Of a DNA stretch of 64,000 nucleotides, positions 15,605 through 21,505 are shown in pieces; within the stretch, counting starts at the first letter, position 1; every line of letters starts with the position of its first letter. The notes under the pieces were generated by a model. The model saw only the letters and a program-made list of their open reading frames with translations, ran no database searches and was not told the DNA's origin. The translations under genes were made by a program, and so were the position numbers. The DNA comes from a virus (lineage: Duplodnaviria > Heunggongvirae > Uroviricota > Caudoviricetes), in the IMG/VR virus record IMGVR_UViG_2724679226_000002, positions 1 through 64,000 of that record. The stretch is one strand, 5' to 3'.

Positions 15605-16312
15605 ACGCTACTTAACTTTACTCAACACTTTTTAAACATAAGTGTAAATAACTGATAGTTTCTAATCATGTTGCCGACGTCAGGAACGTGTTCAAAACTT
15701 CAATTCGAGGGCTCTTAGATTGGATACAAAACTTAGACAACTATGATAAGAAACTATATTTTAAGGAGTAGAGCCCTCTAATTCAAGGGGCAAAACGAGA
15801 GAATGCTCGCACAAATGCTTACCTCATTCTGAGACTCTGTTTGCCCTGTTGCAACATTGAACCAAGTTTTTGCTTAAAGTCTATTGAACTTGGAAAAAAG
15901 ACTTTGTAAAGAGAGTCGGAAGAATTGAATTTCCCGGAGCTACCTACACCACTACTCTCATATTAAAGCGTCCTTAACCTGGTCCACTGCTTCAATTTCT
16001 CTCTAGCTATTCAATGGTCCGAGTTTTCCTCGCAAGTATCACTCGTTAAGAGAGAGCCGTTTGCTCGTGCGTTAAGGACTTTATCATTCCGTTTTCGGAT
16101 TCGCACGGTAACCCTTTATTCGTACAAAACAATCCTCGTAATTCTTGACGACTGCAAACACTCGAATAAATCCGGTAGTGATTTGTCAATATCGATATGA
16201 CGGGAACAGCAAGGCTCGAACTTGCACTCTCCTTGGGTTAAACAACTTAGCCTGAAAATTTATGACTAAATCTAGCAAGGTGCTATTTCCAAATTAAACT
16301 ATGTTCCCATAA
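15605..16312. ncRNA. candidate large structured non-coding RNA in an ORF-free, GC-elevated segment
   Basis: No ORF of 60 aa or more on any frame across about 1.5 kb. It is visibly GC-richer than the flanks. It has several long-range complementary pairs, such as CGAGGGCTC at 15706 with GAGCCCTC at 15771, and GGGCAAAAC at 15788 with GTTTGCCC at 15839. It also has a perfect T-arm-like hairpin (GCAAG-TTCGAGC-CTTGC, minus strand, 16209-16225) bounded by GGGAACA at 16202 and TGTTCCC at 16303. Confidence 0.35.
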
Positions 16313-16624: not shown

Positions 16625-16831
16625 TTAAAGAATAAAAATTTTTTCTCCTGTTAACTCTTCTATTTTTTTTAGGGTTACAGTAGAAATATGATCTTCTTCT
16701 TTTAATGTCTTAAATTGTCTAGAAAGAGTAGTAGGAGTAATACCTAATGCTTTTGCAACTTTAGCTTTACTCACGTTTCCTCTAATTAGACATATTTCTA
16801 TTTTTTTATACAATTTTTCTCCAAATTTCAT
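16625..16831 (-). CDS. small HTH DNA-binding protein
   Basis: VSKAKVAKALGITPTTLSRQFKTLKEEDHIS is a helix-turn-helix. The promoter region upstream contains ATATACG..CGTAT. Confidence 0.55.
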   Translation of the reverse strand: MKFGEKLYKKIEICLIRGNVSKAKVAKALGITPTTLSRQFKTLKEEDHISTVTLKKIEELTGEKIFIL

Positions 16832-16991
16832 TTTTTTACTCCTTTGTTAGAAATATTATATACGTTTTTGACGTATTAGTCAATAACGAATGTAAATTTT
16901 TTCATTTTTTAGAAAAAAGCATAAAATTATAATAAAAAAACAGGTCATAAAACCTGTTTTGGTAGAAAATAAAAACCCCACGAGTGTGGGG

Positions 16992-17570
16992 CTAGATATT
17001 TGCTGTAACTACTTCTAAATTCAAATTTTGATAACTAATATTTTGACAGTCTTTGTCATGGCTAACAAAAACATAATTTTCTAATTCACAAAAATTCAAT
17101 AAATAATTATCATTGAAATCGAAGGCCATAATGCCATTTCCTAACATACAATTGTTTGAAAGGACTGAAAAATTATCATCTACTTTTGAGCAAAATGTTA
17201 ATATGTTTTGTGAAATTTCACTAGCTATATAATTTTTATCATTTATAAAACTTTGACTTTTTCTGTAAATCCTTTTATAATTACGAGAACTGTATTGCTT
17301 GTTCTGTGAATTTAAAAAAAATTTACCCCTTTCCCTCAAATATACATTAAATATTTCGGAAACTTCTATGGACAAAATAGCAATTTTGCAACCATTTGAT
17401 AAGATGTTAGATAATAATGAAGAGTAAAGAGCTGCATTATTTTGATGATATCCACTTTGGTTCCTTTGTAAGGGTAATAAATACAGCCAGATATTTGTAT
17501 CAAAAATATATTTTTTTGTAGGTTGGACTTGATGAGAGGAGATGTGTGATATTTTCATACTTTTAATCAA
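16992..17570 (-). CDS. PIN-domain protein (putative ribonuclease effector)
   Basis: The N-terminus (KKYIFDTNIWLYLL) is the PIN signature with its first acidic residue. The gene overlaps the upstream STAS-like gene by 8 nt. Confidence 0.55.
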   Translation of the reverse strand: MIKSMKISHISSHQVQPTKKYIFDTNIWLYLLPLQRNQSGYHQNNAALYSSLLSNILSNGCKIAILSIEVSEIFNVYLRERGKFFLNSQNKQYSSRNYKRIYRKSQSFINDKNYIASEISQNILTFCSKVDDNFSVLSNNCMLGNGIMAFDFNDNYLLNFCELENYVFVSHDKDCQNISYQNLNLEVVTANI

Positions 17571-17871
17571 CTCCTCTTCTATACAGTTTTAAAGCGTTTA
17601 TTTTTACTTGCTTTATTTGACTTAAAGAAATTTCTTTTGCATTTTCAAATTTAACTAATTTTTCAACTTCTTCTTCAGTATAATCTTTAAATAATTCGCC
17701 ATATGCTAAATTGAAAAATGTTGAAATTGTCATTTCGATTCCTTCAAAATCTAGAATTATTGGAATTTCCCCTAATGAAATGTTTTTTACAATGCTATCA
17801 TAAAGAGTTTTACCTTTTTCTGCAGAAACAGCAAATTGTCCACCGATAATTTCAAAAACTTTAATTTTCAT
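17563..17871 (-). CDS. STAS-like (anti-sigma-factor antagonist / DUF4325-like) protein
   Basis: 102 aa reading IPIILDFEGIEMTISTFFNLAYGEL, with the size and pattern of a SpoIIAA-type STAS domain. It is coupled to both neighbours. Confidence 0.5.
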   Translation of the reverse strand: MKIKVFEIIGGQFAVSAEKGKTLYDSIVKNISLGEIPIILDFEGIEMTISTFFNLAYGELFKDYTEEEVEKLVKFENAKEISLSQIKQVKINALKLYRRGVD

Positions 17872-17887
17872 CGTTATCCCTCCTCTT

Positions 17888-18817
17888 TTAATAATAATAA
17901 TGTATTTTTTTCTTTAAGTCAATAATTATTGTAATAATTGTTCCCGGAATTTTATATGTAAGATTTTTCATAACTTCTCTTTTTTTTATATCTCCATTTT
18001 TAGAATAAAAAGCTGCTTCATAAAATCCTTTTCCACTAATTATTTGAATTTTTCCCTCTATTTTGTGCATAAAACGAAAAAGTGTATACAATCCGAGTCC
18101 ACCAGATGTAGTTTTCGTAGTATGACTATTTTTTAATGCCCACTTTATACAATCAATATCGTCATTTTTCTTTATAAATGAATTGATATTATCATAAAAA
18201 GTTTCGCCTAGATTAGACATAGAAAAGATAAATTTTCGAGAAACTGGAAAAAACTGACCACAAGTTGATATAAAACTAGAGTTTGTATGTTGTATAACAT
18301 TTGCACATAATTCTGTAGTACATTCTAAAATTTTATTTTTTATTATTTCAGAGACACCATCAAATCTGTAATGAGAAATAACTTCTGTCAACATATAATC
18401 GCAAAATTTTTCAGTAGTCTTTTCTTCTTCTTCTTTTTCTATTCTTTTTATTTCATGTCTTGCAAATTGCACTGTTGTTTTTTTTCTGTCTTGAAGTATT
18501 TCTTCTTCAGATACAAGTTTTTCAGGTGAATTATTAAGATATCGATTTCTACATAACAAATTTTTAATTTCATCATTGAAACCACTGAATGTACTTTGAC
18601 CTAATTTTTCAAAATGATATCTTTTTATCATATCTAAAAAAACAACCATGTTGCCATCAATCTGAATTGTTTCAGAGTAATCAAAATGTACAACGTTCTC
18701 TCCTAAAACGTTTGATAATTTTTGAATTTTATCAAAAAAAATGGCAATTGTTTCATAAGTAAAAAAATCATTTCTTATTTTTATTGGTGCTGTTAATTTA
18801 TGTATATTTTTTTTCAT
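17888..18817 (-). CDS. GHKL-family ATPase (anti-sigma-factor-type serine kinase-like) with an N-terminal accessory domain
   Basis: An N-box (ELCANVIQHT) and a G2-box (TSGGLGLYTLF) in the C-terminal half mark it as HATPase_c-like. Confidence 0.55.
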   Translation of the reverse strand: MKKNIHKLTAPIKIRNDFFTYETIAIFFDKIQKLSNVLGENVVHFDYSETIQIDGNMVVFLDMIKRYHFEKLGQSTFSGFNDEIKNLLCRNRYLNNSPEKLVSEEEILQDRKKTTVQFARHEIKRIEKEEEEKTTEKFCDYMLTEVISHYRFDGVSEIIKNKILECTTELCANVIQHTNSSFISTCGQFFPVSRKFIFSMSNLGETFYDNINSFIKKNDDIDCIKWALKNSHTTKTTSGGLGLYTLFRFMHKIEGKIQIISGKGFYEAAFYSKNGDIKKREVMKNLTYKIPGTIITIIIDLKKKIHYYY

Positions 18818-18903
18818 GTTATCTTCCTTAAAATTTTATATTTTAATAAATCCATTCAACAAAAAGCAACCATGTTCATTCTATTTTGATACCTCAATTT
18901 TTT

Positions 18904-19236
18904 TCACTTAGTAACAATAAGCTTTAAACTTGGTTTTTCTGAAAAATCTATTTCTTCATTAACCGGTTCAATAAAATATTCACAAAACATACTTTCAGTG
19001 TTTCGGTATATTTCATGAAGAAAAACATTTAGTTCATATTCGATACCTTCATCAACATAAATTTGATAAGTTACTGTTTTATCATTTTCCGCTATTTTTC
19101 TTATATAAAAAGAATGTGCTTTATATACTACTTTCTTTAATTCAATGACTTTATTTTTCGTAAACAAACAATAAATATCGTCCCAAATTTTAATGCTTTT
19201 TCCTCCTGTGTGACCGTTTATTTCAATGGTTTCCAC
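18904..19236 (-). CDS. hypothetical protein
   Basis: 110-aa ORF upstream of the GHKL gene. Confidence 0.4.
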   Translation of the reverse strand: METIEINGHTGGKSIKIWDDIYCLFTKNKVIELKKVVYKAHSFYIRKIAENDKTVTYQIYVDEGIEYELNVFLHEIYRNTESMFCEYFIEPVNEEIDFSEKPSLKLIVTK

Positions 19237-19262: not shown

Positions 19263-19691
19263 GTATAATTTTAGTTTCTATCCTAAGTATTCTTTGATTT
19301 CTTCTAATATTTCTTTTTTTAAAAATAACTCTTTATCAGGAACATATTCTTCTCCCAAAATACCTTCTAACAAATAAGCAGCAAACTCATTCGCTTCTCT
19401 TTCTTGCTTTGCTGTCCTAATTATTTTGGTATGGTCTAGTAAAAATCGTGTTGTTTTGTCACAATGTAAGAGAGCATGTCATAACTCATGAGCTAACACA
19501 ATCTTAATTTCCCACTCAGTCAATTTATCGTTGATGGCTATAAATTTATTTCCAACCGCAGAGTTATAAAACCCTTTGATGTTTCCTAATTCCATAAACA
19601 CTACTTCAATATTAAGCTTTTTGCATATTTTAAAAATATTTCTTGTACCACACCGTTCAATCAAATTCTTAACTCTCAACCTAATATTCAC
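19263..19691 (-). pseudogene. ImmA/IrrE-family metallopeptidase gene interrupted by an in-frame TGA inside the HExxH motif
   Basis: The translation reads ...KIVLAHEL, stop, HALLHCDKTTRFLLDH...EREANEFAAYLLEG. The TGA sits where the Gly of HELGH is expected. Both halves are ImmA-like. Confidence 0.6.
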
Positions 19692-19699
19692 GAAAACAC

Positions 19700-20167
19700 C
19701 TACTTTTTATTTGTTTTATTTTTAGCGTATTTTTGTTTGTTTTTAGCCTTTCCGATAAAAAACATTTCTGTCATGGCGTCTAACAATTTTTTCTTATCTT
19801 CTTCTGATACTTTCTCATCTCCAAAGAATGATGAGGCTTGAGATAAAGTGGCTTCGTATTGATTGAGTTCTCTTGTGTTAAGAGTGGAAATTCTTGAATC
19901 CATTTTTTTGTCTAGTGAAATCAATTTCTTTTGAATTTTTTCTGGTAATCTTCTAAATTCTTCGTATTCTTCTATTTCATGTTGTTCTAAATCTGTTATA
20001 TGTAAAATTTTTTTTACATTAGTTAAATATGCCTTACTTGGTTTTGTTGCATTATTTTCAGTCATTGTGACATATGCTTGAGTAACTTTTGTTAGTTCTC
20101 CTAATTTTTCAGCAGTAATTCCCAGCATTTCTCTTTTTTGTTTTAAAATTTCTCCTGTTGTCCTCAT
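19700..20167 (-). CDS. XRE-family HTH regulator (ImmR-like)
   Basis: GITAEKLGELTKVTQAYVTMTENN is a helix-turn-helix. The gene is adjacent to the ImmA-like gene. Confidence 0.6.
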   Translation of the reverse strand: MRTTGEILKQKREMLGITAEKLGELTKVTQAYVTMTENNATKPSKAYLTNVKKILHITDLEQHEIEEYEEFRRLPEKIQKKLISLDKKMDSRISTLNTRELNQYEATLSQASSFFGDEKVSEEDKKKLLDAMTEMFFIGKAKNKQKYAKNKTNKK

Positions 20168-20303
20168 AAAAAACCTCTCTTTATAATTTTTTTTATTCTT
20201 ATATAATCATTTTACACTAATATTTATAAAAAAAGACTTGACATAAGTAAAAATTGGAATATTTTGGGAACATTTTTGGAATATTTTATTCTATTTTTTA
20301 TAA

Positions 20304-21341
20304 TTATTTTTTATTTTTTAAGAATTCTGCATAGTTTAATAAATCTTGTTGTTTGTCTGCTGATAAAGAGTTAAATAATTCAACGAAAGGATCTTTTTGT
20401 TTATTAGTTGAACTTCTTATGATTTTAATAACTTTGCCACAAGTTATAACTTCACTTGATTTTATTTCGATTGGTTTGTAGTAAGGATTGTCACTTTCCA
20501 AAACGAAAACACCATTTTTTTTAGCTAGTCTTTTTACTACTCCATCTCCAAATTCTTTGTTTAATAAAAATACTCCAATATCACCAATATTAACTTCGAC
20601 GTCTTTTTTTACAATTACAATATCTCCGTCATAGATAGTTTTTTCCATACTGTCTCCAGAAACACGAATTCCAATAATATCTCCGTCTATTTTAGGGATA
20701 GATACATATTTGATCGGAAGAGATTCAGGAGAATATCCATATCCAGCAGAAACACTTGAATACACAGGAACTTCTATAAGTTCATAACTGAGTTCAAAAT
20801 CAATATTAGAAATAGTTGAAGGATCCTTAAAGTTATTGTCGTAGTCAATATATGCTTTAATATGTTCAGCTTCAATGCGAGATATTTTAAAAGTTTTTAT
20901 AAAACTATCTATAAAATCGTTATTAGGTGTTTCTATACCTGATAAGTAGTTATTTAATAAAATTTCAGAAGTTTTTATTTTTTTGCATAAAAAAGTTATA
21001 TCATAATTATTTTCGGACATAAAATTTTTTAAATAGGTAGGAAATTTTTTTTCAAATTTGATATAATTTTCCTCTACATATTTGTAATTTTTTGAAGAAA
21101 TTATTTTTTTACTAACATCTAATGGAACTAACGTTGCAAATAATTCAACTCTTTCATCTGAGTTTAGATTTAGAGCTTTTGCCAATTTTTCAAGGGTAGT
21201 TTTTCTAGGTGTATTTCTCCCAGATTCTATATCTCCGATAGTTCCATTACCCACTTTTGCTTTTTCAGATAATTCTTTTATTGTCAAATTTCTGCTTTCT
21301 CTCAATTTTTTTAAAAGAATACGAATTTCCATTAAACTCAC
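20304..21341 (-). CDS. LexA/CI-type phage repressor (N-terminal HTH and C-terminal S24 peptidase)
   Basis: The helix-turn-helix reads LTIKELSEKAKVGNGTIGDIESG. The S24 domain reads GIRVSGDSMEKTIYDGDIVIVKK..VVKRL, with the Ser and Lys dyad. It is transcribed divergently from the early operon. Confidence 0.85.
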   Translation of the reverse strand: MSLMEIRILLKKLRESRNLTIKELSEKAKVGNGTIGDIESGRNTPRKTTLEKLAKALNLNSDERVELFATLVPLDVSKKIISSKNYKYVEENYIKFEKKFPTYLKNFMSENNYDITFLCKKIKTSEILLNNYLSGIETPNNDFIDSFIKTFKISRIEAEHIKAYIDYDNNFKDPSTISNIDFELSYELIEVPVYSSVSAGYGYSPESLPIKYVSIPKIDGDIIGIRVSGDSMEKTIYDGDIVIVKKDVEVNIGDIGVFLLNKEFGDGVVKRLAKKNGVFVLESDNPYYKPIEIKSSEVITCGKVIKIIRSSTNKQKDPFVELFNSLSADKQQDLLNYAEFLKNKK

Positions 21342-21349
21342 CCCTTTTT

Positions 21350-21505
21350 TTTTACATTATACTATACTATATACGTTTTTTGTAAAACTTTTAAAAAAAA
21401 ATGTTGACATATACGGCATAAACGTATATAATAAAAGTGTGAATAAGAAATAACAAATTCACAAATTTTTTTTAAAAACATTATACGGAATTAACGTATA
21501 AAAAT
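21350..21505. promoter_or_regulatory. divergent promoter and operator region
   Basis: TTGACA, a 17-bp spacer, then TATATAAT at about 21404-21432. Three TATACG..CGTATA inverted repeats are centred near 21365, 21419 and 21492. Confidence 0.55.

Follow-up and report, generated by a model that had tools for sequence, protein, structure and literature searches.

A stretch of 64,000 nucleotides from a Caudoviricetes virus (positions 1 to 64,000 of IMG/VR record IMGVR_UViG_2724679226_000002), from now on referred to as the window, carries a cassette of three closely spaced minus-strand genes that, judged by homology, is a divergent copy of VapKSC, an already described toxin-antitoxin and anti-phage system. 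The first gene, vapK (17888..18817), encodes a 309 amino acid protein in which a STAS-like domain at the N-terminus is joined to a GHKL serine-kinase domain of the SpoIIAB/RsbW type at the C-terminus. It is followed by vapS (17563..17871), encoding a 102 amino acid STAS-domain (DUF4325) antitoxin of a short-tail form with Ser50 as its predicted phospho-acceptor, and by vapC (16992..17558), encoding a VapC-like PIN-domain nuclease toxin of 188 amino acids when counted from the ATG at 17558, which is the start used by relatives and gene callers. The longest open reading frame (ORF) at vapC begins with a TTG at 17570 and comprises 192 amino acids. The 16-nt gap between vapK and vapS is as originally described, while the reported 8-nt overlap between vapS and vapC applies to the TTG start only, the ATG leaving a 4-nt spacer. 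Gene order, shared strand and tight spacing are those of VapKSC operons, and all three ORFs are intact in the window and have good ribosome-binding sites.

VapKSC was described by Chambers, Rani, Min, Villa and Corbett, as a bioRxiv preprint in February 2026 and in EMBO J 2026;45:5079 in June 2026 (PMC13373217). The 289 vapKSC operons reported there encode a CapK-like kinase with STAS and GHKL domains (VapK), a STAS protein with a short C-terminal region (VapS) and a PIN nuclease (VapC). For the system of Escherichia sp. E4736 it was found that VapC is toxic whereas a D28A variant is not, and that VapS neutralizes VapC, an ability lost upon deletion of residues 94-116 or introduction of the phosphomimetic mutation S48E, which also abolishes VapC binding (PMC13373217). 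The VapS2-VapC2 complex was solved by crystallography at 3.4 Å (PDB ID: 9Z7O). The E4736 operon confers approximately 100-fold protection against phage Bas42, and this protection requires VapC D28, VapS S48 and VapK F54, the last of which corresponds to CapK W68 and is a predicted single-stranded DNA (ssDNA)-binding aromatic residue whose exchange in F54A abolishes protection (PMC13373217). In the published model, ssDNA-activated VapK phosphorylates VapS and so frees VapC, a sequence of events that was proposed, not demonstrated for VapK itself (PMC13373217). The Escherichia VapK-ssDNA model published with it has an ipTM of 0.94. The only Fusobacterium species in the organism list of that paper is F. 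varium, with neither F. gonidiaformans nor F. necrophorum included (PMC13373217).

Among the three window proteins, VapS gave the decisive Pfam match, to PF14213 (DUF4325, 'STAS-like') with an E-value of 2.4e-10, and its sole significant match in the Protein Data Bank (PDB) is Escherichia VapS (9z7o_A, E-value 9.2e-9). It consists of the STAS domain only, with no DNA-binding domain matched in Pfam. Ser50 of the window protein aligns with the validated Ser48 of Escherichia VapS, in a column occupied by Ser or Thr in 82/82 relatives, so that the conserved Ser/Thr which the original prediction had suggested looking for in the STAS protein is present. The Pfam calls for the other two proteins stay below threshold (HATPase_c_2 for VapK, E-value 0.26; PIN_12 for VapC, E-value 0.0014, along with a weak PIN match), and both assignments were settled by structure prediction. 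The GHKL, STAS and PIN identities put forward in the original prediction are thereby corroborated through structure prediction, PF14213, Foldseek and homology to VapK, VapS and VapC.

An AlphaFold2 model of the 192 amino acid form of VapC (pLDDT, the predicted local distance difference test score, of 87.8) returned VapC and other PIN toxins as the top Foldseek matches with a probability of 1.00, its fold resembling VapCs of M. tuberculosis, Shigella and archaea. The Foldseek search against the PDB (copy to 8 April 2026) did not return 9Z7O, whereas sequence searches did: a profile of window VapC and 11 relatives found a single significant PDB match, Escherichia VapC (9z7o_C, E-value 1.3e-13). 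D24 of the window protein, which is D20 when numbering starts at the ATG, corresponds to the catalytic D28 of Escherichia VapC, and the Mg ligands D151, D154, D173 and D175 seen in 9Z7O have their counterparts in D151, D154, D172 and D174. All of these residues as well as E72 are kept, with D24 and the four Mg-ligand aspartates being invariant in the family. VapK starts directly with its STAS domain and lacks an N-terminal helix-turn-helix (HTH) domain, consistent with the CapK-like STAS and GHKL architecture of published VapK proteins. Its N-box (E169, N173, H177) and G2 box (G239-G240-x-G242, GGLGL) are intact and invariant in family alignments.

The relationship to VapKSC was further assessed with hidden Markov models (HMMs) built from the window proteins and their relatives. 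Scored against the Escherichia sequences taken from the supplementary files of the VapKSC paper, family HMMs made exclusively from relatives of the window proteins recovered VapK with an E-value of 4.9e-53, VapS with 2.7e-33 and VapC with 9.1e-19. The relatives were obtained through a scan for kinase homologs in one genome per species, which yielded 155 relatives and 80 retained loci in each of which ORFs were called. Two of the retrieved loci, from Nitrosomonas eutropha Nm57 and Legionella rubrilucens, belong to organisms also listed in Dataset EV3 of the VapKSC paper. The 80 loci span Bacteroidota, Spirochaetota, several proteobacterial classes, Firmicutes, Chloroflexota, Cloacimonadota, Melainabacteria-like lineages and two archaea. 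The order kinase, STAS protein, PIN protein is kept in all but one of the 78 loci with enough sequence (77/78; two further loci end too early), so that the triad does co-occur outside the window, where a lack of co-occurrence would have spoken against the original prediction. The exception is a Clostridia metagenome-assembled genome (L067, 1342-3757) in which the gene after vapK and vapS encodes a TIR-NB-ARC/AAA_16-TPR (STAND/NLR-like) protein and VapC is missing; this third gene could be an effector swap or a replacement acquired after loss of vapC. In three of the reference-genome loci (L020, L073, L083) vapK is split into two ORFs, which could reflect frameshifting, a stop codon or faulty assembly.

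Restriction-modification (R-M) genes are the commonest immediate neighbors of the triad, with HsdR and HsdS each accounting for 9/136 flanking genes, joined by Eco57I-type and N6_N4 methylases. In one clade the triad is part of a type III-like R-M operon, with the Mod-like gene on one side and the Res-like gene on the other. Metagenomic and viral contigs contain the triad as well. Among sequenced phages and plasmids hardly any relatives were found, the yield being one weak phage match and one Deinococcus plasmid. Scans of the cassette proteins against PADLOC and NCBIfam did not yield a useful functional name, nor did PHROGs, in which PHROG 3364 covers VapK over its full length and is annotated as 'unknown function'. 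The lack of a PADLOC name is explained by PADLOC v2.0.0 (2023) predating the description of VapKSC. The earlier remark that the cassette was not recognised as a described defence system has been overtaken by the 2026 publication.

The window represents a Fusobacterium prophage close to the F. necrophorum phage phiFN37: one protein is 98.6% identical, and 58% of a 15-kb window segment matches phiFN37 at 91%. An identical VapS occurs on a 965-kb contig and is annotated as hypothetical in F. gonidiaformans 3-1-5R. The corresponding slot of phiFN37, flanked by the tRNA genes and a CI-like repressor, holds a gene for a 488 amino acid protein without a Pfam match (CDS0046, L091:7009-8475), which may be an alternative cargo or defence gene, and the cassette DNA itself had no match in approximately 50,700 phage records. 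Taken together, these two observations indicate a variable cargo slot, and the moron position next to the repressor that had been proposed for the cassette is indeed a variable slot of a phiFN37-like prophage.

Signals that may delimit the transcription unit could be identified on both sides of the cassette. An intrinsic terminator-like hairpin with an 8-bp stem, 5 G-C pairs and a T-run is located right after the vapC stop codon (16974..16993, minus strand), and a second hairpin is predicted further downstream (16937-16960). The 86-nt spacer 5' of vapK contains a weak sigma-70-like promoter candidate (18878..18907, minus strand; GTGAAA-18-TAGAAT, 9/12), a consensus match only in a region whose promoter-like sites are no more numerous than in shuffled sequence. 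Transcription could equally well reach vapK by read-through, as terminator prediction found nothing in the stretch that separates it from the upstream immunity genes. The operon is probably expressed in the lysogen, where it would protect against other phages, because it lies just downstream of HTH and M78 (ImmR/ImmA-type) genes.

Based on homology, predicted folds, the kept catalytic and phospho-acceptor residues, near-obligate linkage of the three genes and their prophage context, we consider it likely that the operon is a three-component toxin-antitoxin and anti-phage system, carried as Fusobacterium prophage cargo, in which release of VapC is gated by phosphorylation. VapS would bind VapC and hold it inactive in the lysogen. 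Upon a stress signal, for which ssDNA arising from DNA damage or phage replication has been proposed in the Escherichia system, VapK would phosphorylate VapS at Ser50, and phosphorylated VapS would release VapC. Free VapC would then arrest growth, probably by RNA cleavage, and so abort superinfection. The original prediction of a phosphorylation-gated toxin or abortive-infection module is essentially the model published for homologous vapKSC (PMC13373217). That the window copy is active and its kinase functional, that ssDNA is its trigger and that its RNA target is similar, we infer by analogy with the Escherichia operon.

A number of observations weigh against this reading. Window VapS is about 16 residues short and lacks the C-terminal region (94-116) that is essential in Escherichia VapS, so that the part which in VapKSC reaches the VapC active site is missing. 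The protein has 9 residues past the invariant Ala93 (ALKLYRRGVD) and stops at the counterpart of Escherichia Y100, whereas the tail past the invariant Ala measures 16-29 residues in 81/84 relatives and mostly comprises at least 20 with a SIxEIL motif. The G1-box Asp of GHKL proteins normally contacts adenine (Dutta and Inouye 2000). In window VapK this residue is Asn202, the G1 box reading N202-L-G-E-T rather than D-x-G-x-G, and Asn is found at this position in 4/84 aligned members. Escherichia VapK F54 aligns with Gln52 of the window protein, in a column with 58 Trp, 23 Phe and one Gln among 82 aligned sequences, window VapK being the sole non-aromatic member and thus without the predicted ssDNA-binding aromatic of the published system. 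Some otherwise identical copies in sister phages carry frameshifts in vapK or vapC, which may suggest that the module is dispensable or costly. It would also seem that a toxin triggered by DNA damage on an SOS-inducible prophage conflicts with the induction of the phage itself.

The deviations at the VapS tail and in VapK are not confined to the window. In an exhaustive search, the nearest VapS relatives fell into at least eight clusters at 50% identity and without exception measured 98-106 amino acids. At least five diverged lineages have a short-tailed VapS, namely the window clade, L001/L102, L088, L106 and L109, with complete triads throughout. All five have Asn at the position of the G1 Asp. 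The F54 position is occupied by Phe in three of them, while the aromatic residue has been lost in the window and in L088, whose VapK (P0003) has Glu at the equivalent position. The pairing of an HTH and an M78 gene directly upstream of vapKSC is shared by L001, L102 and the window clade, and locus L106 has a gene for a large serine recombinase nearby. In the long-tail viral locus L103, an HTH and M78 pair likewise precedes vapKSC, and a serine recombinase gene comes after it. An M78 gene adjoins vapK in none of the 80 chromosomal loci. The window's deviations being common to diverged lineages with complete triads, they mark a maintained subtype under apparent purifying selection rather than private accidents.

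This pattern opens the way to an alternative in which the family is the same and the mechanism is not: the short VapS would inhibit VapC through the STAS domain alone, and VapK would sense something else than ssDNA, handle nucleotide in another way or capture VapS stoichiometrically in place of catalytic phosphorylation. Such a module would avoid firing during the prophage's own SOS induction, and in its favor are the short-tail lineages that look maintained, not decaying, several of them at phage-like loci. However, the strict conservation of Ser50 points to phosphorylation, even though this residue also lies at the VapS-VapC interface, three of the five lineages keep Phe at the F54 position, and N-L-G-x-T is also found in the long-tail members L005 and L026 within R-M loci and is therefore not tied to phage carriage. 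We regard this alternative as possible but rather unlikely. The same tentative standing applies to the broader proposal that the window belongs to a distinct, mostly phage-associated VapKSC subtype, marked by a short VapS without the inhibitory C-terminal helix and an Asn-type G1 box, in which VapC would be inhibited and VapK activated in ways other than those of the published model. If true, one reason may be that a prophage-encoded copy must not fire on the ssDNA generated by the prophage's own SOS induction.

The cassette could also be a plain addiction module that keeps the prophage in place by post-segregational killing and has no anti-phage role. A toxin-antitoxin architecture on a mobile element would fit this, as would the nucleotide-identical cassette present without coding base substitution on at least 11 independent contigs. 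An addiction module would have no need of a sensor kinase, though, and segregational loss matters less for an integrated prophage. Moreover, the approximately 100-fold phage protection conferred by the Escherichia homolog depends on VapK, VapS and VapC (PMC13373217), and the family is enriched beside R-M and other defence genes. Taking both sides together, a role limited to addiction appears improbable.

Decay into a non-functional remnant was considered in light of the variation among these contigs and of the deviations of the window proteins at functionally important positions. In 4/11 contigs a single nucleotide is deleted from an 8-nt homopolymer, affecting the vapK A8 tract in two samples, the vapK T8 tract in one and the vapC T8 tract in one. 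The frameshifted copies concern vapK in L089, L097 and L090 (L090/L094) and vapC in L095, and the corresponding window tracts are located at 18807-18814 (vapK A8), 18734-18741 (vapK T8) and 17314-17321 (vapC T8). Set against this are the three intact ORFs with good ribosome-binding sites, the retention of all catalytic residues and the occurrence of the same deviations in diverged lineages. The frameshifts are also no commoner than homopolymer changes elsewhere in the same contigs (7/33 outside compared with 4/48; Fisher p 0.98). A decaying remnant is therefore very unlikely. Cassette-specific phase variation was considered as well and, given this comparable rate beyond the cassette, is as little supported as sequencing error; vapK holds 4/47 of the A/T runs of at least 8 nt in the window. 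Finally, a CapK/CapS-type transcriptional switch of neighboring phage genes, suggested by the homology of VapK and VapS to CapK and CapS, through which adjoining operons are freed from repression upon DNA damage (PMC13373217), can be dismissed with little hesitation, because VapK has no HTH, VapS has no DNA-binding domain, a terminator follows vapC and the HTH gene downstream has its own promoter.

The genes on either side of the cassette belong to the prophage and not to the system. All five ORFs of the original prediction are present on the minus strand at the positions given there, the outer two being a 68 amino acid HTH gene downstream of vapC (16625-16831) and a gene for a 110 amino acid protein upstream of vapK (18904-19236). 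Their inclusion as cassette members could not be upheld: neither has a homolog at the other related loci searched. The 68 amino acid HTH gene has its own near-consensus promoter, lies beyond two terminators and is swapped for a different 72 amino acid HTH_3-type gene in several sister phages (L089, L093, L095, L097 and L101) in which the cassette is identical. On its far side, a second tRNA-like element of 108 nt is found beside tRNA-Ser(GCT) (16201-16308, minus strand), scoring 42.7 bits against the Rfam tRNA model without being called by ARAGORN; the equivalent site of phiFN37 is annotated as 'tRNA-OTHER'.

Upstream of the cassette, an ImmA-like M78 peptidase pseudogene (19278-19691, minus strand) and a gene for a 155 amino acid HTH protein (19700-20167, minus strand) could be identified. 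The pseudogene carries an in-frame TGA at 19479-19481 within its HExxH motif (AHEL*HALLH), where sister phages have GGA (Gly, HELGH) and encode an intact 137 amino acid protein that consists of the M78 domain alone. Recoding of TGA (code 4 or 25) was rejected, as the GGA in sisters identifies the stop as a nonsense mutation and long table-11 ORFs extend across the window. The 155 amino acid HTH gene accounts for 62/75 differences between the window and sister L089 over 3.3 kb, with the adjacent genes being near-identical, and looks like an immunity-specificity hotspot. The possibility that the HTH and M78 genes form a CapH/CapP-type controller of the operon was likewise rejected. CapH-CapP pairs are located upstream of the regulated operon on the opposite strand and their CapP has a C-terminal GAF domain; the window pair is on the same strand as vapKSC and its peptidase lacks GAF, which fits the ImmR/ImmA type better.

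Further upstream, a 345 amino acid LexA/CI-like autocleaving repressor with HTH and Peptidase_S24 domains is encoded at 20304-21341 (region approximately 20233-21465). This gene is found in the window, L092 and L096, is absent from L089 and L090 based on direct DNA comparison and was not called in L093. Sisters without it have only about 84 bp at the site and are otherwise near-identical. The truncated M78 gene also occurs in L096, which carries the S24 repressor gene like the window, while L092 combines the S24 repressor with an intact M78 gene. Presence or absence of S24 may mean that the induction module switches between the ImmR/ImmA and the CI/S24 type.

The occurrence of VapKSC, first described in 2026, on temperate phages of clinically relevant Fusobacterium, in a cargo slot beside the repressor, means that the cassette could shape which phages infect lysogens. 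The short-VapS subclade offers a natural test of two claims of the published mechanism, namely that blocking of VapC depends on the C-terminal helix of VapS and that sensing depends on the F54-type aromatic. It also raises the question of how a DNA-damage-sensing toxin coexists with a DNA-damage-inducible prophage.

The cassette shares individual features with several known systems. SpoIIAB-SpoIIAA and RsbW-RsbV likewise pair an anti-sigma-type GHKL serine-kinase fold with a STAS substrate carrying a phosphorylatable Ser, but there the released protein is a sigma factor held by the kinase, whereas here it would be a PIN toxin held by the STAS protein, and the window kinase bears its own N-terminal STAS domain. 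Pfam scans of the cassette and its neighbors detected neither a sigma-70 nor a PP2C/SpoIIE domain, and none recurs in the related loci. Consequently, the partner-switching logic originally proposed holds for the kinase and its STAS substrate and not beyond: without a sigma factor or PP2C, and with a kinase that is a STAS fusion, the module is better viewed as kinase-gated antitoxin release.

As in type II VapBC systems, the gene for a VapC-like PIN toxin directly follows an antitoxin gene with a tiny spacer. In contrast to VapBC, the antitoxin is a STAS protein rather than a DNA-binding VapB of the AbrB, RHH, PHD or MazE type that autoregulates its operon, and the toxin is larger (approximately 188 compared with 135 amino acids). 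The VapS of the homologous system leaves the active-site Mg in place, and release is proposed to occur through phosphorylation, not through antitoxin proteolysis (PMC13373217). A coupling of PIN and DUF4325 genes was noted nine years earlier by Matelska et al. 2017 (NAR 45:6995; PMC5499597) for the PIN clade 'PIN.4', showing the same linkage without the kinase or a mechanism; window VapC may belong to PIN.4. The main text of the VapKSC paper contains neither 'DUF4325' nor 'Matelska' (PMC13373217). In the gene table of Francisella phage KIRK, a 293 amino acid hypothetical protein and a 112 amino acid DUF4325 protein are listed beside the CI repressor, followed by a 125 amino acid transmembrane protein and no PIN protein (PMC7924643). 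Here, too, a prophage may carry a VapK/VapS-like pair, though combined with another third gene.

Similarity also exists to CapK-CapS, whose kinase combines homologous STAS and GHKL domains and acts on a STAS substrate, phosphorylation of a conserved Ser breaking the complex (PMC13373217). The additional HTH at the N-terminus of CapK and the winged HTH at the C-terminus of CapS, a DNA-binding repressor, are lacking in window VapK and VapS, and the output of CapK-CapS is transcription while that of VapKSC is nuclease release. The closest counterpart is VapKSC of Escherichia sp. E4736, with which the window shares the genes and their order, a VapK without HTH, the phospho-acceptor Ser of VapS and the catalytic and Mg-binding aspartates of VapC. 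Identity amounts to approximately 26% for VapK and 30% for VapS, with VapC similarity apparent only at the profile level. The window system differs in the G1 box of VapK (NLGET, not DFGVG), in having Gln at the F54 equivalent, in a VapS without the C-terminal region and in being carried by a temperate phage beside its immunity genes. The VapKSC family, its architecture and its basic mechanism are thus already part of the literature, and what the window adds to them is a divergent, largely phage-associated subtype with a short VapS.

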